Source of the DNA: a virus
DNA: 47,508 nt
Strand: one strand, 5' to 3'
Virus record (IMG/VR): IMGVR_UViG_3300028048_000198
Coordinates: 1 to 47,508 of that record
Both the position numbers and the translations under genes were made by a program. Under the pieces are notes generated by a model that was not told the DNA's origin, did no database searches, and was given only the letters and a program-made list of their open reading frames with translations. Below, in pieces: positions 4,472-47,508 of the stretch; the first letter of the stretch is position 1, and the number at the start of each line of letters is the position of its first letter.

Positions 4472-4924
4472 ATGAAAACAATAATTGAAGAAATAAGAGA
4501 ATATATTGCTTGTCCTCAATTTGGGGATGACCATTATGGTAAATGGGGAGCTTTAAGTAGAATTCAGAGATCTAAAATAAAAGAACTATGTGATTATGCA
4601 AATGCACTAGAAGGTATGGTTGATGAATACAATAAGTTAAACGATGATGCTATAGATGCAACTGAATATTTTTCAAAAATTGTATTAGGAATTTGGAATA
4701 ATGACAATGAAGATTATAAAGTTAGATTTGTAAAAGAATATAAGGAATTAAAAGAAAGATATGGAAAGTTACATAAAATGATAGTGAAAGCAGAAGCTGG
4801 AACTTTAGATTTTGAACTTGACTGTCCTTTAGATTTACTAAAACAACAAGCTAAAGCTATGGGAGAATACCTACATATACTTGAAATAAGAGCTGAAATA
4901 GAAAAGGTAAATATAAATGAGTAA
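4472..4924 (+). CDS. Hypothetical protein with a helical C-terminal domain (YKELKERYGKLHKMI...LLKQQAKAMGEYLHILEIR)
   Basis: ATG at 4472 is better spaced from the SD ggaga than the track start at 4466. The C-terminal half resembles a family common in Firmicute and gut phages. Confidence 0.6.
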   Translation: MKTIIEEIREYIACPQFGDDHYGKWGALSRIQRSKIKELCDYANALEGMVDEYNKLNDDAIDATEYFSKIVLGIWNNDNEDYKVRFVKEYKELKERYGKLHKMIVKAEAGTLDFELDCPLDLLKQQAKAMGEYLHILEIRAEIEKVNINE

Positions 4925-5150
4925 AGAAGAATATGCACAATTATATTCCTTATTAGGTAAACTAAAATACGAAATAGGTATTACATTTAGACAGAGGATA
5001 AATTGTCATAATCTTATGAATGATAACTTACAAAAGATAAATGAAGTATTAACTATGCCTATATTTTTAAGTGATGATGATAAGTGTACTATTACACCAT
5101 TAGATGATTACTTAAAAGCAGAAGATTTTGTATTAAACGAAAAAGACTAG
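4917..5150 (+). CDS. Hypothetical protein (77 aa), last gene of the rightward arm
   Basis: ATGA overlap with the upstream stop. Confidence 0.55.
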   Translation: MSKEEYAQLYSLLGKLKYEIGITFRQRINCHNLMNDNLQKINEVLTMPIFLSDDDKCTITPLDDYLKAEDFVLNEKD

Positions 5151-5167
5151 AACAATCTAGTCTTTTT
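5140..5167. terminator. Bidirectional rho-independent terminator between the convergent arms
   Basis: aaaaagactaga-acaa-tctagtcttttt: a perfect 12-bp stem flanked by A/T runs, overlapping both stop codons. Confidence 0.85.
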
Positions 5168-8100
5168 ATTTCATTCTATTAAATTGTTGTATATATGGAT
5201 TTGCTTTCATACCATTTAATTTATTAAGCTTAGCCATAATACCTTCTACAGATGAATTCTTATTTGCTTGTTTAAGCTCAGCCATAGTGCTAAACTCATA
5301 GCCTTGTTGTTCGTATTGTTTCATCATTGTTTCCAATTTATCTAGTTGGTCATACATTCTATTTATTCTATCTGTGTCAACATTACCTTCCATTGTAAAT
5401 GCATTTCCTAAAGCACTAAGAGGATTACCTTCTCCATTCATAGTTTGTTGTATTCCTTGATAAGCTCTAACTCCAGTTTTAATAGGAACATCTAAACCTG
5501 TTGTACCACCTAATAAATATTCTTGCATCTTAGTTAGTCCTGGGATGTTTGTACTCATTTGTCCTTTGAATTTCTCTATATCATTTCCAGTAAAGGAATT
5601 TCTATTCATAACTAACTCTGTAGGCATTTTAATTCCTGGTGATACTAGATTTACTGTGTTGCTTAAAGGATGCTCAATAGTATCTATTAAGTTACCAAAA
5701 GGCATTGTACCTCTTAGTACTGTATAAGAACCATCTTTACCAATACCTGGAATTGGTATGTATAAATTGTCTTTCATCCATGCAGATACACTCTCACTGT
5801 TGTCATCGGTTGCAGCATCTAATAGACCTTTATAACCTTTTATAAGTCTGCTATATTGAGATGCATTTTTAGATAAGTTTTCTACTTGAAAAGCTAAGTT
5901 TTTCTTCGTAAATGTATAGAAAGGCATAATCCTTTTCATTTTGTTTCTTTCAAAATCAGTTAAGTCTGATGGATCGAATAAGATTTTTCTTACAGCTTCT
6001 CCAGCATCTTCAACTCCTAGTCTATCTAGGAATTTAGTATTTCTAGAACCTTCTATAAATGTAGCAAGTCTAGCCATAGTATCCATAGTGTTATTCATTT
6101 TATTGTTTAAATAAGGTAAACCATCTTTTATAAAGTCCTTAACACTTTTAAGTTCTTTTTCTCCAGTAAAATATTTTCTTAAGCCATCTGGCATATCTGC
6201 TAGGTCAAACGCAGTTAATGACTTAGGATCACCAAATCCTGCATCTATAAACCTATTCCACATTTCTAACATATCACTTTCTTTAGCTGTAAGTGGTATA
6301 TTGTTAGCAGCCTTTTTCATTAAATCATCACTTTTATTCATTATATTAAGTGCTTCTGGGAAAAGTTGAGCTTGTTTAGTTGGGTTAATACCAGCTAAGA
6401 ACATATTTGATGAGTTACCTAAAAGGTTGTTAATCTGGAATGTAGGAGATAATACTTTATTCTTTTTAAAGAAATTCATGTATTTATCATACAATCTTGT
6501 TAGACCTTTAACATCATTTTTATTTGTGCCTATTTCTATAAGTCTTATTACATCTTTATTTATAGCAAGTTTATCACCATTATTTTTAATATACTTAGCT
6601 ATATCTTTCATTTCATCAATACCTAATTCAGAGCTTATTTGTTCTACTTTATTTACCAGTTTTTCAACTTCTCCTTTTTCTAGTTGCTTAAAGCCTCTAG
6701 GAATGGCTGCATCTGATTTAGTAAGTATTTTCATGTTACTATTATTTAACTTATCTATTTTTTGAGCTGTTAATTTTTCAACTAAACTATTATCTCCAAC
6801 TTTCTTAGCAGCTTTTAATTCCTTGTCAATTTCTTTAAGTTCTTTGTAATTACCAAATGTTGCATCGACTAAAACTGAGTTCAATGTTTTGTTATCTTTT
6901 GCTAATTTTGGTATATTTTCTAGATAATTAGTAAATGAACCTGTTAAAGTACCTGAGAATAAGCTACCATCTTTTAATAATTTTTCAACAGCTTGTTTTT
7001 GTTTACTATTTAAGTTATCCATATTCTTTCTTATAGTATCTTCAAACATATTGTTTGCTTCTAAAACAGACATATTGTATTTTCTATCATTTAGTATTCT
7101 AGCATTTCCCTTAGTTTTTACTCTACCATATTCATCAACAAAGTCTAAGTCTAAATCTTTAAACTTATTAATAGTATCTGCATTATAACCATGTCTTACA
7201 TATCCTTTATTATCCTTACCATATCTTTCAACAAGTTTTGTACCAAAATTCTTATCTATAACATCATTAGCTTTATTAAATATGTTATCAGTTTGCTTAT
7301 ATAATTCGTGAAATCTTGTGTCCTTATTATATTTTGCCATCAATTTATCAAGTCGTTCTATATCCTCTGGTCTATAGTTTCCTACTTTAGTAACTTGCTC
7401 AGCAAGTTTATTACCATCTAACGAAAGTCCAGAAATTTCATCAGCAATTTCTTTACCAAATTTATTAGATATAGCCTTATATTGTTTACTAGAAGGATTA
7501 TGAACCATATACCAACCTTCACCTAGTTTTACAAGTCCATCTTTATCAACTGAAACTGACATATCTAAACCTCTACCAGCCTTTGATACATCATCACCTA
7601 TTGCATTAAGTTTCCCAATTATTTCATCACCAGCATCAGCATAGGTAAGTTTTTTATTCTTAGCTTCCTTTATAATGTCATTCATTGTTGTTTCTCTTTT
7701 TAAGAACATCTTTTCCTTAATATCTAAAAGGTCTTTATCTGTAGTGTCTGCTATTTTCTTTATCATATCGTCAACACTATCTGTAGCTTTTACAATTCCA
7801 TTGTCTATATAATATTTTAACTTCTCACTATCGTTTACAACATCTGTAGCATAGTCTGCAATGTCTTTACCTAATTTTTCATATAAAGGTTTTAACTCAT
7901 TAGCAGCTCTAACACTATCAGCATTATTTTTTCTTAAAGTGTTTTTAATATTCTTAGGAATACTAGCAGCAGTACTAAATGCCTTAGAAATTTGGTCTTT
8001 AATATCCTTGTAAGTTTCCAGTTTACCTACAACACTATTTTTTGTTATATCCTTAACATTCTTACCAAGTTCTTTAGCAAGTTTCTCAGCACCTTCTTTT

Positions 8101-10895: not shown

Positions 10896-11072
10896 TTAAT
10901 TATTCATTGTCTTTCCTACTTGTGTACCAAAATAGAAAATTATGATCATATATACCATTTCAGTAAATTTATCATCTTTGATACCCATAAAAACTGATAT
11001 AACATAAGATACAACAAATAGTAAAGATATTAATGAACTTACTTTTAATAGTTTTATTAAAGCTTCTTTCAT
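10896..11072 (-). CDS. Holin candidate (58 aa, two TM helices)
   Basis: MKEALIKLLKVSSLISLLFVVSYVISVFMG...MVYMIIIFYFGTQVG; ATG at 11072 with SD agaggt. Lies immediately downstream of the endolysin gene. Confidence 0.6.
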   Translation of the reverse strand: MKEALIKLLKVSSLISLLFVVSYVISVFMGIKDDKFTEMVYMIIIFYFGTQVGKTMNN

Positions 11073-11083
11073 ATTAATTACCT

Positions 11084-11833
11084 CTATATCTTTTCTGAAT
11101 ATGTTATTCCATCTGAGCCCTTTATACATACATATCCACTAGGAGTTTTAGCCCATTTTCCATATTCATTATTAATTATTTCTAAAGCAGTATAAACTGT
11201 TCCTTTTTTATAAATTGCAGGAGCATTATCATCTGTAAAGTAAGCATTCTTTCTACCGTCATTTGTCATTTCACAAGTTTTCTTTATATCGTAGTTATCT
11301 CCTGCTCCATATCTTACATTCAAATTAAATAGTGTTCTATAATCTTTATTACCTATTTCTTCTCCAGTATATTTTGCAACCTCTGCTTTTGTTATACCAA
11401 AATAGTCATAAGGATTATCCCAAAAGTTGTCATTGCCTTTTCTTTCATCACCATGATAGTACCCATTTTGTCTGTTATCTAAGTGTATCCAACATGGTGT
11501 ATCTGTTGGAGCAATACCATTTAATTCTCCTAAATCCCATGCTACACACGATACTATTCCTGAAGGTATTGGATTTCCGTCTTTATCATAATAGCAACAA
11601 TCAGCAGCCAAACCTTCTGCATGGCGACCAACAAATCCACCTATTTGTATATCATAATCAGGACACCTATAACCACTTGAAATAATACATTTACTTGCTC
11701 TTAGTTTACTAAATATGTTTTCCATTTTGTTTACTAGGTTTTCATCAATTTTTATGTTTCCACAATGTTGACATTCAAATTCTGTACTGTGAAAATGTTC
11801 ACTTATATTTTGAGATTTTGTTATCATATGCAT
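11084..11833 (-). CDS. Endolysin: peptidase M15 (zinc D-Ala-D-Ala carboxypeptidase-like) plus C-terminal SH3-like wall-binding domain
   Basis: SGYRCPDYDIQIGGFVGRHAEGLAADC matches the M15 SGYR..N..vGG...S.H..G.A.D pattern. The C-terminus YRTLFNLNVRYGAG...GKWAKTPSGYVC is SH3b-like. Confidence 0.8.
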   Translation of the reverse strand: MHMITKSQNISEHFHSTEFECQHCGNIKIDENLVNKMENIFSKLRASKCIISSGYRCPDYDIQIGGFVGRHAEGLAADCCYYDKDGNPIPSGIVSCVAWDLGELNGIAPTDTPCWIHLDNRQNGYYHGDERKGNDNFWDNPYDYFGITKAEVAKYTGEEIGNKDYRTLFNLNVRYGAGDNYDIKKTCEMTNDGRKNAYFTDDNAPAIYKKGTVYTALEIINNEYGKWAKTPSGYVCIKGSDGITYSEKI

Positions 11834-11883: not shown

Positions 11884-11912
11884 ATTATAGCATAGTTCTT
11901 TTATTTTTTCAA
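11884..11912 (-). promoter_or_regulatory. Consensus sigma-A promoter directly upstream of the endolysin gene
   Basis: Minus strand TTGAAA-17-TGcTATAAT; the -35 overlaps the last codons of the XhlA-like gene. Confidence 0.6.
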
Positions 11913-12191
11913 GCCAATCATTACAGCTACAGCACCTATAACTAGGCTTATAACTGATGTTATTATATAATTGACAATACTGTCATATCTTTTAATAGGT
12001 TTTTCTTCTAGAGCCTTAAGTCTTTGCTCTGTTTTGTTTTGTTCTTCTCTCATGTACTTCATTTCAACAGCAAGTTTCTCAGTAGATATAGCAATATCTG
12101 TGATATTGTCAAAGATCTTATGCAGATCCTTGACATTACCTTTTAAATCTTCAAACTCTTGTCTAGTTACTTCACTTTTATATTCTTTCAT
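11901..12191 (-). CDS. xhlA: XhlA-like protein (N-terminal coiled coil, C-terminal TM anchor)
   Basis: Coiled coil EFEDLKGNVKDLHK...EQRLKALEE followed by the TM IVNYIITSVISLVIGAVAVMIGL. Position next to the endolysin is as in Firmicute phage lysis cassettes. Confidence 0.6.
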   Translation of the reverse strand: MKEYKSEVTRQEFEDLKGNVKDLHKIFDNITDIAISTEKLAVEMKYMREEQNKTEQRLKALEEKPIKRYDSIVNYIITSVISLVIGAVAVMIGLKK

Positions 12192-26901: not shown

Positions 26902-27264
26902 CTAGCCTTTATCTATTAGCCATGCACATCTCATAATTCTTTCTGACGGATCAAAAGTATCATAAATAACTCCATTTATTATTGCTGTTATATGATTATT
27001 CATTGTAACAGCATATTTACCAAACGGATGTTCTTCTGCGAATTCTCCAACACTTTTTGAATAATGACATTCTCTAGGGTATCTATCATCTAGATAGTCC
27101 TCTACGAATTCTACATTATCTGTCATATATCCATCTTTAGAGGAGAAATGTGCAAGTTCTCTATAAACACTTTCCCAACTTCTATCAGTAAGCAAAGACA
27201 AGCTGCGAATTACGCAATCTTCAATATCCCTATTCTTAGGATTTCTATTATAATATCTATACAT
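26902..27264 (-). CDS. Small papain/C39-like cysteine peptidase-fold protein (120 aa)
   Basis: Candidate nucleophile in IEDCVIRSLS. HITAIINGVIYDTFDPSE resembles the C39 H-x(10,11)-D-x-x-DP arrangement. Confidence 0.5.
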   Translation of the reverse strand: MYRYYNRNPKNRDIEDCVIRSLSLLTDRSWESVYRELAHFSSKDGYMTDNVEFVEDYLDDRYPRECHYSKSVGEFAEEHPFGKYAVTMNNHITAIINGVIYDTFDPSERIMRCAWLIDKG

Positions 27265-27728
27265 TAATTCATTAATTCTTTAGCTTTATTAAAATATTTC
27301 TTTACAATTTCTTGTTCTTCTGGAGAAGTTGCTGTTTCTTTAATGTATTTCATTAACTTGTAGTTATAGTGTAGCATACTTTCCAAATCTTTTAAGCCAT
27401 CTTCCTTAGCTCCGTAGTTTCCACGAGCATTAAACTCGTTTCTATCTTCTTCGTAAGCTTCATAGCTTCCTCTCATACCATCCATGTAACCTGATGCTCT
27501 ATATTTAGCATCTACACCTCTACGACCATATTCACCATAGTTACCATAAGCATTGTATGCTCCATATCCTCTACCATATTCATTTCCATATCCATTCATA
27601 TTTTCTACCTCCTTTAAGTCTTTATAAATATCTACAACTTTAAACAATTCATCCTTATCCACAGTATGGAATTCTTGTTTACCTTTCTTTTCAATGTAAT
27701 CTTCAACCTTCTTTATTATCTCTTCCAC
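27264..27728 (-). CDS. Hypothetical protein with a central Tyr/Gly/Arg-rich low-complexity segment (154 aa)
   Basis: NGYGNEYGRGYGAYNAYGNYGEYGRRG...SGYMDGMRGSYEAY flanked by helical ends; the stop overlaps the next start. Confidence 0.6.
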   Translation of the reverse strand: MEEIIKKVEDYIEKKGKQEFHTVDKDELFKVVDIYKDLKEVENMNGYGNEYGRGYGAYNAYGNYGEYGRRGVDAKYRASGYMDGMRGSYEAYEEDRNEFNARGNYGAKEDGLKDLESMLHYNYKLMKYIKETATSPEEQEIVKKYFNKAKELMN

Positions 27729-27732
27729 AGGA

Positions 27733-27918
27733 TCACTTCCCTTCTTTTAGAAGTCTGATTATTTCTTTATTCTGGTCTATAATAGTTTCCAAATAATCTT
27801 TATTCTGATGCTGAAACTCTCTCATTAAGTCTTTATTGTTATAATCTTTCAACAATATCTCTAAATCTATTACTTGTAAAAGTAAAGATAAATTATCTAT
27901 TGTATTAATACATCTCAT
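27733..27918 (-). CDS. Hypothetical helical protein (61 aa)
   Basis: ORF packed between neighbours (1-4 nt gaps). Confidence 0.5.
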   Translation of the reverse strand: MRCINTIDNLSLLLQVIDLEILLKDYNNKDLMREFQHQNKDYLETIIDQNKEIIRLLKEGK

Positions 27919-27919
27919 A

Positions 27920-28378
27920 TTATAACTTCTTTATTGTAAAGTTAGCACTTTGAATTATTGGTGTTTCTGTTTCTATTGCAACACCTGTTGATAAGTTTGG
28001 AACACTTGGTACTGATGCTACAGTTATATTAGCATCTGCTCTGCAACAAACTTCTATAGTTTTTGAAAATGAAACATTTTCTGGAACTCCAACAGTTGTT
28101 ATTTCAGTTGTAACAGTTGTACCTGGTACTAAAACACCATCTTGATATAGTCCTAAAGCTACACTTCCTGCTGTTGCACTTGAAACATTAGCATTAAAAT
28201 TTACTTCATAGTAACCACCTTTTACTATTTGGTATAATGGATTACCTTGATTATGGCACAACCATCCATTACAGTTGTTTTGACAAGCACTACGAGTTCT
28301 TATTGTATCATTTGTAAAAGTTATAGCACTTGAGTTATTAGTTAGAGCTAAAGGTAATTCTTGTACACTCTCTATCAT
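27920..28378 (-). CDS. BclA-C-terminal / C1q-TNF-like jelly-roll protein (152 aa)
   Basis: GGYYEVNFNANVSSATAGSVALGLYQDGVLVPGTTV resembles BclA-CTD GFYKITVIANTATASVLGGLTIQVNGVPVPGTG. Strong SD gaaaggagag. No collagen-like stalk. Confidence 0.5.
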   Translation of the reverse strand: MIESVQELPLALTNNSSAITFTNDTIRTRSACQNNCNGWLCHNQGNPLYQIVKGGYYEVNFNANVSSATAGSVALGLYQDGVLVPGTTVTTEITTVGVPENVSFSKTIEVCCRADANITVASVPSVPNLSTGVAIETETPIIQSANFTIKKL

Positions 28379-28477
28379 ATTATCTCTCCTTTCAATTACA
28401 TAATTTCAACAATTTAATGTTAAATTTTGCAGTTTTTATGCAAAAAATTAGATTTAATTGTGAATTTTGAATAATTA

Positions 28478-28507
28478 AATAAAAGAGGATAGAACTATGC
28501 TATCCTC
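28478..28507 (-). terminator. Rho-independent terminator after the 291-aa gene
   Basis: Minus strand gaggatag-catagtt-ctatcctc followed by ttttattt. Confidence 0.7.
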
Positions 28508-28508
28508 C

Positions 28509-28535
28509 GTTAAGTACTGTTAAGTACCGTTAAAC
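28509..28535. repeat. 2.5 tandem copies of a 10-nt unit GTTAAGTACN
   Basis: gttaagtact gttaagtacc gttaaac, lying between the 291-aa stop and its terminator. Confidence 0.8.
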
Positions 28536-28577: not shown

Positions 28578-29453
28578 TTAAATAAATTGACTTGATCCGT
28601 TGCATCCACATCCATTGTTGTTACAAGTGAATATTGGAGTACGTCCATATACTGGAGTTGATGGAACAGGGCAACTAGAAAGTCTATTGTATAATTGATC
28701 TACCTCATTAGCGAACCCTTGTGCAATGAATGCATTTTGAGCTGTTTGAGATTTGTCTAGACTTAACATTAAGTTTTGTCTTTCAAGATCACTTATCTTA
28801 TCGTTCTTAGCATCTATCTCTAATTGACATAATTTATCAAGGATAGCCTGAGTATTAGCTGTAGCATTAGTAATAATATCTCTAGTATTATTAGCATCAG
28901 CAAATCTAGTTTGGTTACCTTCATTTTGAACTATGTTTTGAGTTTGACAAGTTGCTAGACGATTTTCACAGCAGCAATTATCTAATGATTTTTGTAAACC
29001 ATTAAATCCTTGAAGTGTTGCGATTTGGTTACTGAAGTTTTGGTTCATGTTAGCCATTTGTCTATTAGCAGCAGCTATCTCAGAATTGTAGAAACCGTTT
29101 GAAACAGTTTGTTGCATATCTGCACAGCAGTTACAAAGTTGATTACTTAAACTTGCTACACCATCTCGTACACCTTCGATTTGATTTGACAAATGTAAAG
29201 TATCAAAACCATTGTTAGTATTAGTATTAATACCTTGTTGACCGTTTAATAGCCATGGGAACTCATACATCATACCAGCTCCTGCTCCACCACCGAAGCC
29301 ACCAAATCCACCCCAGCCACCGTTACCTAACATACCTAAAGCGATAATACCTAAGATCCACTCTCCCATATTACCACCCCAGCCATTGTTACCGTTGTTA
29401 GCACCGATGTCTACTGTTGGAATTATTCCGTTTCCGTTCATATATCTCACCAC
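28578..29453 (-). CDS. Membrane-anchored Gly-zipper / Cys-cluster / Gln-Asn-rich coiled-coil protein (291 aa)
   Basis: N-terminus GEWILGIIALGMLGNGGWGGFGGFGGGAGAG. Cys clusters are LCNCCAD, DNCCCENRLATC and TCNNNGCGCNG. Long Q/N-rich helical segments. Confidence 0.65.
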   Translation of the reverse strand: MVRYMNGNGIIPTVDIGANNGNNGWGGNMGEWILGIIALGMLGNGGWGGFGGFGGGAGAGMMYEFPWLLNGQQGINTNTNNGFDTLHLSNQIEGVRDGVASLSNQLCNCCADMQQTVSNGFYNSEIAAANRQMANMNQNFSNQIATLQGFNGLQKSLDNCCCENRLATCQTQNIVQNEGNQTRFADANNTRDIITNATANTQAILDKLCQLEIDAKNDKISDLERQNLMLSLDKSQTAQNAFIAQGFANEVDQLYNRLSSCPVPSTPVYGRTPIFTCNNNGCGCNGSSQFI

Positions 29454-29492
29454 CTTCCTAAAATCTATATATCAAACACTATGTGTTGATAC

Positions 29493-29717
29493 CTAACTTG
29501 AAAGTAGGTTTTCTATTTGGTTTATCTGCTCATCAGAGTAACCAAACCTTCTTGCAAAAGTATAAAGCTTTTGTCTTTGCTCAGGACTTTGTTTACCTAA
29601 AGTGTTCCTAAGCATTGCTTCTGGAGTACTATTCTTCTTCATTTGCTCCAGTTGGTTGTATTGGTTGGGATACTGAGCCCTTAGTTGCTGTATTATCCCT
29701 TGACTTATTTGGTTCAT
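29493..29717 (-). CDS. Hypothetical protein (74 aa), overlaps the upstream gene by 89 nt
   Basis: ATG at 29717 is preceded by the strong SD gaaggag 7 nt upstream, and that SD lies inside the upstream ORF. Confidence 0.5.
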   Translation of the reverse strand: MNQISQGIIQQLRAQYPNQYNQLEQMKKNSTPEAMLRNTLGKQSPEQRQKLYTFARRFGYSDEQINQIENLLSS

Positions 29718-30093
29718 TTCTTATCTCCTTCTTAAGATCTTCTAGTTCTTTCTTTAATGCGTCAATCTGCAAGTCCTTCTCATCCTTAGGTATAAACTCT
29801 TCTAGAAGATAAGTCTTAACACTACCTGTCGGAGTTTTATACCACATATTAGTAAATGCTTTATTCACGAACAAAGTATCTACAAATATCATCTCCCGTT
29901 TTACATCGTCTATGCTCTCAGCATATCTAATACCTTGTCCACCTGGACCTGTTTGAATAGTCTGGTTAAGTATCGTAGGCTGAGAATATTGTGTTTGCAT
30001 CTTTTGTCTTTCTAACTCTGCAATCTTATTCCTCTCCTCTTGAATTTGTCTATCATAATTCATTATCTGAGGATTATAATTCATTCCGTACAT
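29629..30093 (-). CDS. Hypothetical protein (154 aa) with N-terminal coiled coil
   Basis: ATG at 30093 with SD aaaggaaggga (the track start at 30096 is TTG); low-complexity tail. Confidence 0.6.
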   Translation of the reverse strand: MYGMNYNPQIMNYDRQIQEERNKIAELERQKMQTQYSQPTILNQTIQTGPGGQGIRYAESIDDVKREMIFVDTLFVNKAFTNMWYKTPTGSVKTYLLEEFIPKDEKDLQIDALKKELEDLKKEIRNEPNKSRDNTATKGSVSQPIQPTGANEEE

Positions 30094-30130
30094 CAAATTC
30101 CCTTCCTTTCTGTAGTTATTATCTCATAAT

Positions 30131-30161
30131 AAAAAAGAGGTAAAGTCCTAACTTTACACTC
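30131..30161 (-). terminator. Terminator/attenuator directly after the HTH regulator gene
   Basis: Minus strand gag(t)gtaaag-ttaggac-ctttacctc followed by ttttttatt; overlaps the stop codon. Confidence 0.6.
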
Positions 30162-30465
30162 TTTTTGTACACATTTTATCCACCATTTGCTTCTTCTCCA
30201 TGAGGGTAGTAACTCTCTTTGGGTAGAAAGTAGGGTTACTATATTGTAAATAGTCATACTTCTTTCTAATGCTAGAAATAGTATTGTTAATAGTAGTTCT
30301 AGAAACATGGAACTCTAAAGCCATTTTAGTAATAGTCCATTTATCTCTTTCCCATACTCTAGCATGTAATACCTTAAGTTCAATGTCTGACAAGATTGCA
30401 TCACCTACGAACTTATTATATAGCTCCTTAGTCCAAGGTATTTGATTTTTAATTGATTTTCCCAT
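30154..30465 (-). CDS. Small sigma-70-region-4 / LuxR-type HTH regulator (103 aa), candidate late-gene regulator
   Basis: LSDIELKVLHARVWERDKWTITKMALEFHVSRTTINNTISSIRKKY fits the L(T/S)..E..vl......G.s..eiA..l.vS..TV......i..K pattern. Confidence 0.65.
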   Translation of the reverse strand: MGKSIKNQIPWTKELYNKFVGDAILSDIELKVLHARVWERDKWTITKMALEFHVSRTTINNTISSIRKKYDYLQYSNPTFYPKRVTTLMEKKQMVDKMCTKRV

Positions 30466-30485: not shown

Positions 30486-30514
30486 ATTATAGAGGGAGGT
30501 GGATTTTATTTCAA
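30486..30514 (-). promoter_or_regulatory. Consensus sigma-A promoter for the HTH regulator (leftward early promoter)
   Basis: Minus strand TTGAAA-17-TATAAT, 20 nt upstream of the ATG; SD gggag. Confidence 0.7.
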
Positions 30515-31283: not shown

Positions 31284-31312
31284 TTGACATTATAAAATTT
31301 ATATGATACAAT
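31284..31312 (+). promoter_or_regulatory. Early promoter P3 (sigma-A, extended -10)
   Basis: TTGACA-17-TGaTACAAT with the same upstream block aattttaaaaaagtta(aaaaagtta)t. Confidence 0.75.
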
Positions 31313-44833: not shown

Positions 44834-45330
44834 TGGTATTAGATGAAAAGGAGCTAGAAAAATATAAAACTCATCCTAGAGTTTTAGAAATAAGATTTAT
44901 TTTAATGTTTGATATGTTTGAGAAGGAACTTGGTTACCAACAAGCAACTAAGTCCTTCCAGGCTTTATGTAGTGCGTTTAATTGTAATATGACACTATTA
45001 CAAGCTATTATAAATAGGAGATTTGATATATTAAGAAAGTCAAAAACTAATTTTAGAAGATGGCGACAAGAAGTTGTATTTTCATCCTATGTTTATGGGG
45101 AAAGTATTTATAGAGTTGCTAAATATTACTTTAGAATTAAGCCAGAAGGTATATATGCACAAAAGGAACTCTATGATGTTAACAGATTTTTAACTAATGA
45201 ATGGCTAGATAAACTTGATGATAGTACAATATTGTGTGGAGAATATGCTTATAAAAATGAAGTTGTTAGATTTATGGAAATTATAGATAACATGGCTCTA
45301 ATACTAAAGAAGTGGAAAGGTGATGCTTAA
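44833..45330 (+). CDS. Hypothetical protein (165 aa) between the primase-helicase and polymerase genes
   Basis: TAATG coupling on both sides. Confidence 0.6.
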   Translation: MVLDEKELEKYKTHPRVLEIRFILMFDMFEKELGYQQATKSFQALCSAFNCNMTLLQAIINRRFDILRKSKTNFRRWRQEVVFSSYVYGESIYRVAKYYFRIKPEGIYAQKELYDVNRFLTNEWLDKLDDSTILCGEYAYKNEVVRFMEIIDNMALILKKWKGDA

Positions 45331-46724
45331 TGTTCTTATATCAGAAGTATAAATATAACTATAAACATTTAGATGTACATAATGATGCTGACATATCTTA
45401 TTTACAAGATTTAATACATAAAGCAGATAATGTACAACCTAATTATTTATATTACGATACTGAAACTGATGGATTACATATTATAACATCTAAACCATTC
45501 TTAGTATCATTTGGTTTTAAAAAAGATGATGTAAAAGAAGTTATAACTATGGATTATGATAAGGATATAATGAATTCATTTTGGAAAACAATATCTATAC
45601 AAAAGAATTTGAACAATAATCCAAATTATATAGGTGTAGGAGCACACAATGCTAAATATGATTATCACATGATGGAAAATGGGGGCAGTCCTATTCCAGA
45701 AAATATAGACTTGTTTGATAGTATTACAGTTGCTAGACTTACTGAATATGTTGATGAACACGCAAGTATGAGCCTAGAAACACTTGGTGGTAAATATGTT
45801 GATGAAGAAGCTAAGTTTGCTGGTAAAATTATTAAAGATATTATTAAAAAACTTAATGCTGAAAGAAGAAAACAACTTAGAGAAGATATTATGAACGCAT
45901 TTCCAGATGATGGATTTTTCACTATAACTAAGAGTGGTAAAAAGAAAGCAACAGGTAAACTATCTAAACTTATTGAGAACTATGATAAAACTAGAACACA
46001 GTTCTTAAACGATGATGATCCTTACTTCAAGTTTATTGATGAACACTATAGACCTGCTAGTTATAAAGATGTATATGAAAAAGAACCAGAATTAATGAGA
46101 AGTTATGCTGCTGATGATATTGTTATAGGTATAGAATATCTAGAAAAGGCTATGCCTACATTGTTAAAAGTTGATAAAGACTTAACCGTAACAAAAAGAG
46201 AAGGAAAACTTATTAGGGCTGTTGCTTGGATGGAAGATACAGGACTTAAAGTTGATGTAGATTATGTATTAAATTGTAGAAAGAATATGATAGCTTATAG
46301 AGATTTATTATACTTTGAACTACAAATGTACACAGGCGAAGAGTTCTCAGTAGGACAACATGAATTTATAAAGAAGTTATTATTAGCTAAATATAAAATA
46401 AAAACTGATAAAGCAGATGAAAAAGCACTAAAATATATTAGAGAACATTCTGATAATGAAGAAGTTAAAGATATTTGTTCTAATATACTAGAATTAAGAA
46501 CACTTGATAAATGGATTTCTACTTATGTTGACGGCAAACTTAATGCTGTTGTGAATGGTAGAATATATACAGATATAAATAATAATGGAGCTGTATCTGG
46601 TAGAGTTAGTTGTGATATGCAACAACAACCTAAGGAAGCACTATTTGATAGAGATGGTAATGAGTTATTCCACCCTAGAAGAATGTTTGTTTGTGATGAT
46701 GGTTTCTGTTTAGCATTTTGCGAT
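45330..46724 (+). CDS. Family-A DNA polymerase, exon 1 (3'-5' exonuclease domain and N-terminal part of the polymerase domain up to the motif-A Asp)
   Basis: Exo I is YYDTETDGL, Exo II is NAKYDYHMM and Exo III is YAADD. RRMFVCDDGFCLAFCD matches Taq IRRAFIAEEGWLLVALD. The in-frame stop 3 nt later belongs to the intron. Confidence 0.9.
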
Positions 46725-47508
46725 AAATGATTGTCGCAGTAAAACTCTGTGAATTGCTGGAAACCCCTTAGAGCTTTTAGTACCAAAGTGTAAAAATCTA
46801 AAAGATTGGGCAATCAGCAGCCAAGCCTAGAAATAGGAAGGTTCAACGACTATCGAAAGGATAACGAACCGAGTAGAGTAGGTTTCAAGTGAAACCGAAG
46901 TGCAGAGATATTGACACGAAGTTCCATTTGTGATACCATATAAAAGGTGATAGAAATGGAAGAATATATAAAAAATAATTTTAAAAAATTAACAAAATCT
47001 GAAATGGCTAAAAATCTTGGAGTGTCTTATAATAAAGTAGACTGGTTATGTAGAAAATTAGGACTAAAACATTACAAGTCAGTAAAATATAGTGATTATG
47101 AAATAGAATTTATAAGACATAATTATCCAACTTATGGATCTAAATTTTGTGCAGAAGCACTAAATAGAAGTGAAAATGCCATAAATAAGAAAATAAAGAA
47201 GATGAATTTACAAATAAATTGGAAACACTATTATATAAATACTAATGGTTATCTTGTAAATTGTGAAGATAGAAATAAACCCTATCTAGTTCATAGAAAA
47301 ATTATGGAAGAACATTTAGGTAGGAAACTAAAAGATAATGAAATAGTACACCATAAAGATATGAACAAACTTAATAACGATATAGATAATTTACAAATAG
47401 TGTCAAGAAGTGAACATACTAAATTACATCAAGATTATTTGAAAAAGTGTCAATATAAGATATAGTCTGAACTTATGTGAAAGCATAAGAGAACTAATGG
47501 AAACGATT
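46725..47508 (+). mobile_element. Group I intron (IA2-like), 5' part to the window end (continues 128..144); about 801 nt in total
   Basis: P1 pairs ttgcgaT (exon end) with Gtcgcag (46733-46739), giving a U.G pair at the splice site. The cores agccaagcc and gtgcagaga match the T4 td-type conserved segments. The GC-richer structured sequence at 46725-46945 contains no ORF. Confidence 0.8.
46956..47465 (+). CDS. Intron-encoded HNH homing endonuclease with N-terminal HTH DNA-binding modules
   Basis: HNH motif is VHHKDMNKLNNDIDNLQIVSRSEHTKLH. HTH-like segment is LTKSEMAKNLGVSYNKVDWLCRKLGL. ATG at 46956 lies 6 nt after aaaggtg. Confidence 0.85.
   Translation: MEEYIKNNFKKLTKSEMAKNLGVSYNKVDWLCRKLGLKHYKSVKYSDYEIEFIRHNYPTYGSKFCAEALNRSENAINKKIKKMNLQINWKHYYINTNGYLVNCEDRNKPYLVHRKIMEEHLGRKLKDNEIVHHKDMNKLNNDIDNLQIVSRSEHTKLHQDYLKKCQYKI

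Follow-up and report, generated by a model that had tools for sequence, protein, structure and literature searches.

The window analysed here is the whole stretch of 47,508 nucleotides in the IMG/VR virus record IMGVR_UViG_3300028048_000198. Our subject is a minus-strand gene at positions 28578-29441, hereafter the target, which encodes a Cys-rich coiled-coil protein of 287 amino acids (aa) with a match to PHROG 16490. A first-pass annotation of the sequence had missed the main point: the gene belongs to a conserved, co-oriented, multi-gene cassette, which is new here, and it is more interesting as part of that cassette than on its own. The same annotation placed the gene at 28578-29453. The stop end is correct, but 29453 is an upstream in-frame GTG of the longest open reading frame (ORF), and the likely start is the ATG at 29441. 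This ATG is almost certainly the start because a Shine-Dalgarno-like AGGAAGGTGGTGAG (29446-29459, minus strand, read from the sequence) lies 5-18 nt upstream, and because 287-aa homologues begin with MNGN and cover 100% of the query.

The cassette lies on the minus strand and opens with a helix-turn-helix (HTH) protein of 103 aa (30154-30465; 70-100 aa in its family) that matches Pfam HTH_11 at E = 1.2e-4. Two small proteins precede the target. A (29629-30096; 155 aa, ~145 aa in the family) has a Y/N/P/Q-rich N-terminus, a conserved domain of ~55 aa and a coiled coil. B (29493-29717; 74 aa, ~70 aa in the family) is Q-rich and helical, and its gene overlaps the upstream gene A by 89 nt. Downstream of the target lies the gene for a Cys-rich beta-sandwich protein of 152 aa (27920-28378), the beta partner, for which modeling with AlphaFold 2 (AF2) and a Foldseek search predict the fold shared by the BclA C-terminal domain (CTD), ExsFA/BxpB and C1q/TNF proteins. 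It is followed by a coiled-coil ORF of ~60 aa that is sometimes present and occurs in window-type cassettes (27733-27918; 61 aa here), by GYR (27264-27728; ~145 aa, PHROG 28802), which has helical ends and an RG/Y-rich middle, and by pep120 (26902-27264; 120 aa, PHROG 3754), a putative Cys-His-Asp (papain-like) peptidase with invariant C17, H91 and D102.

We fetched 80 IMG/VR loci and built iterative hidden Markov models (HMMs) from the neighbouring genes in the window; related loci are referred to below by L-numbers. Over these 80 loci, a co-oriented module recurs in the order (pep120)-A-B-target-beta partner-GYR(-pep120). The module was found again in 51 loci from metagenome-assembled genomes (MAGs). 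In 138 sources (137 loci and the window), HMM matches were obtained for the beta partner, adjacent to the target, in 118, for GYR in 109 and for pep120 in 113. The pep120 gene is located ~1 kb upstream of the target in 44 loci and otherwise after GYR, as in the window, and in about 35 loci an HTH ORF precedes the target by ~1-1.5 kb. Phages without the target have neither A nor GYR. The 155-aa and 74-aa proteins of the window were taken as positional and architectural equivalents of A and B from a MAFFT alignment; their hhalign probabilities against the dominant A and B families are 13-15%. The 89-nt overlap between A and B (29629-29717) is in different frames. An overlap of ~90 nt recurs in related loci such as L138, L140 and L141. 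The part of B that is overlapped, its N-terminus, is conserved in sequence, and the two genes may genuinely share this long stretch.

In pep120, the C17, H91 and D102 residues are invariant in 25 diverse sequences, and the protein has no Pfam or PDB sequence match. Relatives are also found in Pseudomonas PAK_P1-like, large Bacillus and Lak phages, some of them annotated as putative peptidases. A second type of cassette (L049, L073, L079/81, L082 and L084) contains A-like, B-like and GYR-like (PHROG 28802) proteins with the target and another kind of Cys-rich beta protein. At four of the loci, pep120 gives way to a small HExxH zincin-like protein, and L073 has neither peptidase. The HExxH protein gave weak matches to SprT-like, M78, DUF6782 and PHROG peptidase families. 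The presence of two unrelated putative peptidases at the same cassette suggests that proteolysis may be part of the module. When all cassette proteins were searched against Pfam, NCBIfam and PADLOC, nothing significant was found besides weak matches to BclA_C and HTH models. In PADLOC, the target and five other cassette proteins had no match, and the matches of the 61-aa ORF (E = 0.007) and the HTH protein (E = 0.017) were both weak. Profile searches with the target, the partner, pep120, A and GYR against PDB sequences returned nothing or coiled-coil noise.

HTH, A, B and the target look like a unit transcribed by the host polymerase because a promoter precedes the HTH gene and a conserved terminator follows the target. 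The promoter, TTGAAA-17-TATAAT at 30486-30514 on the minus strand, is near-consensus and sigma-70-like, with 11 of 12 positions matching; it was called by consensus match only. The terminator at 28484-28508 (minus strand) is an intrinsic-terminator-like hairpin with a 9 bp stem, followed by TTTTATTT as its T tract, and it ends the unit. The first-pass annotation had noted that the gene has its own terminator, and the hairpin (minus strand, 28508-28484) is indeed 100% conserved in L136, a relative whose protein is 88% identical. The 111-nt 3' untranslated region (UTR) of the target folds at -27.9 kcal/mol (z = -2.9). A 10-nt tandem repeat reported earlier in this UTR exists, though it is marginal (28507-28533, unstranded; 2.7 copies, Tandem Repeats Finder score 47). 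We considered it as a regulatory element and ruled this out: L136 has unrelated sequence in its place, and elsewhere in the window the motif does not occur (2 matches versus 1.55 expected by chance, so no enrichment). The repeat is incidental.

Two observations concern the control of neighbouring genes. A further near-consensus sigma-70-like promoter (11/12 as well) at 31284-31312 on the plus strand points in the direction opposite to the one at 30486-30514. The pair is a divergent control region that separates the leftward cassette and late genes from the rightward early and replication genes. The spacer between the target terminator and the partner gene (28378-28484) is highly conserved in L136. 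A palindrome, TTGCATAAAAACTGCAA, lies within it, and it has no sigma-70-like promoter. The downstream, perhaps late, genes may have their operator here, or a promoter that depends on an activator, and the HTH protein of the cassette may possibly act on this site.

The target is a member of a large, conserved, phage-restricted and uncharacterised family. Its homologues at E <= 1e-3 number at least 8000 clusters at 90% identity, and an exhaustive profile search yielded 1115 target clusters at 50% identity. None of the listed homologues has a Pfam domain or an informative name. Carriers include Butyrivibrio phage Ceridwen (53% identity), lemur and rodent faecal phages and human gut phage contigs. 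Among GTDB species representatives, the target was found only on phage-sized MAG contigs, mostly of rumen and gut Bacillota. The sole family match of the target is PHROG 16490 (unknown function; E = 3.6e-21, 77 bits, residues 130-282). It has no match in Pfam, NCBIfam, PADLOC or PDB sequences, and these searches gave it no identity as a known virion component such as an ejection protein, which the first-pass annotation had named as the alternative. Megablast of the region against INPHARED produced no match, and the literature that we searched contained no functional information on the target family or the cassette. The low-complexity Gly and Asn/Gln runs of the target could in principle mark a spurious or decaying ORF that owes its odd composition to low-complexity DNA. 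There is practically no chance of this, as it is refuted by the at least 8000 homologues, the 1115 clusters and the conserved Cys columns. Thousands of the homologues are full-length; length, motifs and Cys columns are conserved in proteins down to ~30% identical, and synteny is conserved as well.

Further homologues occur in a Bacteroides uniformis phage, labelled 'outer capsid protein/viral fiber', and in crAss-like Suoliviridae, labelled 'spike protein/glycoprotein'. These labels probably reflect coiled-coil resemblance and not evidence. The second label, on the homologue in crAss-like phage cr125_1, likely originates from a resemblance to class I viral fusion proteins, in which a Gly-rich hydrophobic N-terminal peptide also precedes a long coiled coil with a Cys motif. 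However, the target differs from them in having no C-terminal transmembrane (TM) anchor, no six-helix-bundle layout with a second heptad repeat (HR2) and no detectable homology. Tailed phages have no envelope. The crAss-like homologue is TAG-recoded and keeps the same layout. In cr125_1 (L002, NC_055900.1), the only stop codon found in frame within the genes at 4584-6532, the target homologue among them, is TAG, which fits TAG reassignment in this Suoliviridae phage.

The target protein contains 14.6% Asn, 12.5% Gly, 8.0% Gln and 4.2% Cys; the mean Cys content of the proteins of this phage is 1.24%. The strings that the first-pass annotation had quoted from it (EWILGIIALGMLGNGGWGGFGGFGGGAGAG, CNCC, NCCCENRLATC and CNNNGCGCNG) were all found on the minus strand, and the dense Cys clusters are real. 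To describe the family we aligned the window protein with 111 cluster representatives, and the conservation values below refer to these 112 sequences. The N-terminal module (residues ~14-56; 29274-29402, minus strand) consists of a Gly-rich run, an acidic residue, an apolar core of ~11-13 residues, WILGIIALGMLG (29322-29360, minus strand), and a second Gly-rich run. Family-wide, a Gly-rich run of ~13 residues is followed by D or G, a WWW-I-L5 core, a Gly-rich run of ~14 residues and YDFPWLL. The median core length is 11 residues. The target carries GGFGG/GGWGG runs in its N-terminus, and the N-tail is acidic, with 351 D/E versus 86 K/R over the 112 sequences.

This segment had been proposed to be a glycine-zipper TM anchor. 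The proposal does not hold, as a core of ~11 residues has neither the length nor the hydrophobicity of a canonical TM helix and lacks internal Gly periodicity. We found no GxxxG periodicity inside the core and no Pfam Gly-zipper match; the family consensus core has no internal Gly, and the Gly runs flank it. The best 19-residue Kyte-Doolittle score of the target is below 1.6, versus 2.3-2.6 in holin-like ORFs of the same phage. On an approximate Hessa-type scale, insertion of 19 residues would cost the target +4.1 kcal/mol; the median for the family is +2.3 kcal/mol, and only 5% have values of 0 or less. By these measures and by inspection of the N-terminus, the target falls below the TM threshold and has no signal-peptide-like N-terminus, and none of the cassette proteins examined has a signal-peptide-like N-terminus or a Kyte-Doolittle TM segment. 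At best, the N-terminal core is a short hydrophobic plug or interfacial anchor.

Residues 82-255 (28677-29198, minus strand) make up a helical, Q/N-rich region with heptad a/d periodicity and Cys at 103, 156-158, 165 and 205. The long Q/N-rich helices noted earlier agree with the composition of the protein and with an AF2 monomer model from a 20-sequence alignment, in which two long helices span residues 82-167 and 176-255 at a predicted local distance difference test score (pLDDT) of 44. Conserved hydrophobic columns are spaced by 3-4 residues, as in a heptad, and C103, C156 and C205 are at or beside core positions. Cys is conserved in 87% of the family at C103, in 73-78% at the C156-158 triplet (CCC; 28968-28976, minus strand), in 91% at C205 and in 63% at C257; near the C-terminal end the values are 78% for C273, 85% for C278 and 82% for C280. 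The family retains eight to nine Cys columns, so the clusters are not compositional noise, the outcome that the first-pass annotation had named as refuting its reading. C105 and C106 are restricted to the clade of the window. In the same clade, residue 165 is Cys (nt ~28947-28949) and residue 176 is Asn (nt ~28914-28916); most of the family has Ala at 165 and Cys at 176, the two columns being Cys in 11% and 83% of the sequences. The Cys is shifted in the window clade by 11 residues (three turns of a helix), so that the predicted break between the helices lies between the two positions.

The C-terminal Pro/Cys motif CPVPSTPVYGRTPIFTC-NNNG-CGC (residues 257-280; 28602-28673, minus strand) is invariant in close relatives, and we propose that the Cys-rich beta partner docks or is cross-linked here. 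A disulfide- or metal-linked assembly, suggested by the first-pass annotation, is a reasonable reading because the Cys residues are conserved family-wide and lie near the heptad core, and because the tail cluster co-occurs with a Cys-rich partner. The membrane or surface location that accompanied this suggestion is unproven.

By its predicted structure, the partner in the window has a C1q/TNF-type jelly-roll fold. The AF2 model, built with 27 homologues, has a pLDDT of ~87 over residues 55-152. Its best Foldseek matches in the PDB (probability 1.0, E from 6e-5 to 2e-3) are the BclA CTD (1wck, 3twi), BxpB/ExsFA (8d02, 7r1m, 9h3d), F-BclA, EDA-A1, collagen X NC1, C1q and Chlamydia Pgp3. All of these are trimeric C1q/TNF-like jelly rolls. 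In BFVD, collagen-like and tail-fibre proteins carry the same fold as their distal domain, and gut phages also have it as a stand-alone protein of ~135 aa. The partner has conserved cysteines in SIPC and GCC motifs. A tblastn search of the partner against phages found no match. The gap between the target and partner genes has a median of 13 nt and is 20 nt or less in 76 of 124 cases. At least two Cys are present in the last 30 residues of the target in 113 of the 117 loci with a Cys-rich partner downstream versus three of the eight without a partner (Fisher p = 2.8e-5), and five partner-less loci have Cys-free target tails. This co-occurrence is the best available evidence here for a direct Cys-mediated link between the target C-terminus and the partner. 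Gene fusions of target and partner ('Rosetta stone') were not found among the 138 sources.

Combining these data, we tentatively prefer a reading in which the target is an elongated stalk or anchor subunit, namely a Cys-stapled, probably trimeric coiled coil that docks a TNF-like trimer within an optional, self-contained accessory assembly. The odds are somewhat against even this reading, whose mechanism is drawn from predicted fold, synteny and co-occurrence. The target chains, probably three of them, would run in parallel as a coiled coil, and disulfides or bound metal would staple its Cys layers. The Pro/Cys tail at the C-terminus would dock and cross-link the TNF-like trimer. The two genes would thus make a 'stalk plus knob/adaptor' unit, comparable to BclA on ExsFA or to a collagen-like phage fibre that ends in a C1q-like knob. 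The apolar core, held between flexible Gly linkers, would bundle on oligomerisation to become a hydrophobic plug or interfacial membrane anchor, and the cassette peptidase would mature one of the components. As export signals were not seen, the infected cell would build the assembly in its cytoplasm; in this phage, transcription would start from the host-type promoter. Candidates for its purpose are an envelope or exclusion layer, an optional virion appendage, or something else. We slightly favour a cell-associated accessory structure: the cassette is optional, its locus is of the moron type, its promoter is host-type and its Cys content is high.

Several observations weigh against the stalk reading. 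The partner scores 19.2 bits against Pfam BclA_C (PF18573), below the gathering threshold of 38, and only one of 25 partner family members matches this model; over its full length, the Foldseek matches reach TM-scores of no more than 0.4-0.47. For the target, the pLDDT of the AF2 monomer is too low for a fold search. The statistic that connects the Cys tail to the partner ignores phylogeny and rests on ~5 partner-less loci. In the window, target and partner are not co-translated because a terminator separates them, and the pairing is not universal, as the crAss-like and Bacteroides-phage homologues have different neighbours. Relatives of pep120 occur in phages without the cassette, and the peptidase activities are read from triads and motifs alone. 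Finally, the hosts are anaerobes, in which disulfide formation is not a given.

The nearest analogues of the proposed unit are the BclA/ExsFA exosporium nap, collagen-like phage fibres with C1q-like knobs, and Chlamydia Pgp3. Pgp3 (4jdm, 6gjt), one of the Foldseek matches of the partner, likewise joins a triple-helical coiled coil to a TNF-like C-terminal domain. Unlike the target and its partner, it is a single secreted polypeptide without Cys clusters, and it is unrelated in sequence. In the exosporium nap of the Bacillus cereus group (1wck, 8d02, 7r1m, 9h3d), a fibrous protein is tethered to a TNF-like trimer via a terminal peptide, and the partner product has the same C1q/TNF-like jelly roll by prediction. 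Exosporium assembly also involves Cys-rich proteins and proteolytic maturation. The stalk here is predicted to be an alpha-helical coiled coil and not a collagen-like triple helix; collagen-like G-X-Y repeats are absent from the target, in which the Gly-rich runs are of the GGWGGFGGFGGG type and the remainder is helical. In addition, the stalk and the TNF-like domain are on separate genes here, the genes are phage-borne, and the hosts include non-spore-formers. BclA, ExsY and CotY have no sequence relation to the target. On the features tested, the target fails to fit the glycine-zipper TM, holin or signal-anchor-release (SAR), collagen-like, core-virion and defence families.

The genomic setting bears on where such an assembly would act. 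The window appears to be the whole, circularly permuted ~47.5-kb genome of a virulent-type phage. It looks permuted, with the cut inside the polymerase gene, because 45330-46730 and 142-951 match consecutive parts of phrog_17; relatives of the phage are contigs of ~47-48 kb. The window encodes a DNA polymerase, a primase, a helicase and a RecE-like exonuclease, and its major capsid protein (MCP) is distantly related to that of Paenibacillus podophage API480. L144, L155 and L150 have the terS-TerL-portal-scaffold-MCP block in common with the window (MCP 53-70% identical), and no cassette gene was found in the 6.5 kb upstream of terS in these three. The test of the target as a core virion or ejection protein therefore failed, with phages of the same virion module having no cassette upstream of terS. 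In temperate siphophage contigs, and likewise in Dulem virus 33, the cassette is located between the endolysin and integrase genes. In L009 it is bracketed by hairpin terminators, and Ceridwen carries it downstream of its lysis genes and of an annotated terminator. The cassette is optional and accessory, not core.

One rival explanation is an optional virion appendage. The target trimer would be a fibre shaft attached to the capsid or tail, the TNF-like protein would form the knob at its distal end, A and B would be adaptors or chaperones, and the peptidase would mature the fibre as S74-type chaperone peptidases do. In viruses the partner fold usually makes up the distal domain of a collagen-like or tail-fibre protein, as the BFVD matches to viral fibre termini indicate, and a trimeric shaft with a TNF-like distal domain is the arrangement of collagen-like and coiled-coil fibres of phages and giant viruses. 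The Sf6 tail-needle knob and PRD1 P5 are examples of this kind, with a C-terminal C1q/TNF-like knob. The composition of the target, rich in N/Q/G/A/T/S and poor in Lys, is fibre-like, and virion proteins need no signal peptides. The cassette in the window is just upstream of terS in the same orientation as the late genes, the homologue in cr125_1 borders structural genes, and the sister phage L154 has a bclC-like gene near tail-fibre-like genes at the same locus. Nevertheless, we regard an appendage as unlikely. The same cassette is present on siphovirus (Ceridwen), API480-like and other backbones with unrelated attachment sites, and sister phages assemble the same virion module without it. 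Temperate phages carry it after the lysis genes beside the integrase, where a terminator precedes it and it has an HTH gene of its own, and in the window a near-consensus host-type promoter drives it. The virion proteins of this phage contain 0-1.1% Cys versus 4.2% in the target and 3.3% in the partner, and low-complexity proteins rich in G/Y/R and Y/Q/P are unusual in fibre modules. Compared with known fibres, shaft and knob are split here into two ORFs, the cassette lies outside the tail-fibre region, and an N-terminal Gly-rich/apolar module is found in place of a virion-attachment domain.

The frequent position of the cassette directly after lysis genes raises another explanation, which we consider rather improbable: a membrane-active effector in the infected cell or lysogen that acts in superinfection exclusion, abortive infection or lysis timing. 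The hydrophobic N-terminus would insert in the cytoplasmic membrane, and partners and proteolysis would control its activity. Consistent with this, the apolar core is flanked by Trp and an acidic residue throughout the family, the optional cassette sits at a moron-type locus with its own regulator, and the target unit in the window has a host-type promoter and its own terminator. The combination of a protease and a membrane protein also recalls protease-activated pore formers. However, the core falls short of a canonical TM helix in length and hydrophobicity, the target and five other cassette proteins have no PADLOC match, known exclusion proteins are small single genes, and an effector offers no obvious role for a 170-residue Cys-lined coiled coil, a TNF-like trimer and low-complexity proteins. 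As to lysis, class III holins and SAR lysis proteins (T4 T and RI) resemble the target in having a weakly hydrophobic Gly-rich N-terminal segment before a large Cys-containing domain, and the target gene is near lysis genes in several phages. The target differs from them in lacking a basic N-terminal region and any sequence similarity, and its core is shorter than a TM or SAR domain. In this phage we rejected a holin or lysis role: the endolysin (11084-11833; itself unusually Cys-rich, 4.0%) is 17 kb from the target and has holin-like neighbours of its own, which are better candidates, and the core of the target is sub-threshold.

Could the cassette build a material rather than a stalk? A cross-linked protein matrix or condensate resembling the spore coat, exosporium, chorion or keratin-associated proteins would be hardened by Cys chemistry, with the Cys-His-Asp enzyme trimming or cross-linking the co-assembled components. 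The cassette unites two Cys-rich proteins with low-complexity proteins rich in G/Y/R and Y/Q/P, the target has its GGFGG/GGWGG runs, the closest folds to the partner are those of the exosporium proteins BclA, ExsFA and BxpB, and a putatively papain-like Cys-His-Asp protein could be a peptidase or a transglutaminase-like cross-linker. Still, the argument is one of composition and analogy only, no such structure has been reported for phage-infected cells, and the enzyme of type-2 cassettes is an HExxH protein, a better fit to proteolysis than to cross-linking. The Ceridwen host Butyrivibrio fibrisolvens is not known to form spores. A matrix of this kind is very unlikely in our view. A bolder version, which we rate as improbable, is that a self-regulated module directs infected cells or lysogens to build a Cys-cross-linked, exosporium-like or keratin-like layer or condensate, a previously unrecognised accessory system. 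It would be nucleated by the coiled coil and the BclA/ExsFA-like partner, filled by the prion-like G/Y/R- and Y/Q/P-rich proteins and matured by the peptidase. If true, it could, for example, shield against superinfection, scaffold the production of phage or protect released virions as a matrix.

The target family is among the larger uncharacterised families of gut and rumen phages. A single odd ORF can now be described as a defined unit of six to seven genes comprising a Cys-lined coiled coil, a TNF-like partner, alternative putative peptidases and low-complexity proteins. The cassette moves among siphoviruses, the API480-like lineage and, in part, crAss-like phages; therefore it probably serves a general, portable phage-host or phage-phage function in the anaerobic gut. 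An exosporium-like layer or condensate, if true, would be a new class of phage-encoded structure, and an optional fibre, if true, would have an unusual split and Cys-stapled design. Since a cultured carrier is known, Butyrivibrio phage Ceridwen (proteins QHJ73765-QHJ73772), the function is directly testable.

We also made a number of minor observations. At the locus of the cassette between the early genes and terS, L144 (5702-6430) and L155 (5700-6404) have a gene for an M23/LytM-like peptidase, and L154 (2002-5997) has tail-fibre-like genes, small multi-TM proteins and the bclC-like gene, and no target. The ORFs at 10896-11129 and 11901-12191 that flank the endolysin gene of the window each contain a strong TM segment (Kyte-Doolittle score 2.3-2.6) and are likely the holin or lysis accessory genes of this phage. 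In several of the siphophage-type cassettes inspected, an ORF of ~105-120 aa follows GYR (L009 7641-8000, L025 7659-8012, L060 7748-8110). It had no PHROG match in the two tested (L009 and L025) and may be another cassette member. The dominant pep120 subtype (e.g. L036 2814-3191 and L015 3436-3849) has an extra P-x-x-C-P-x-C insert, which is absent from the window subtype and, from its sequence, might be a small metal-binding loop.

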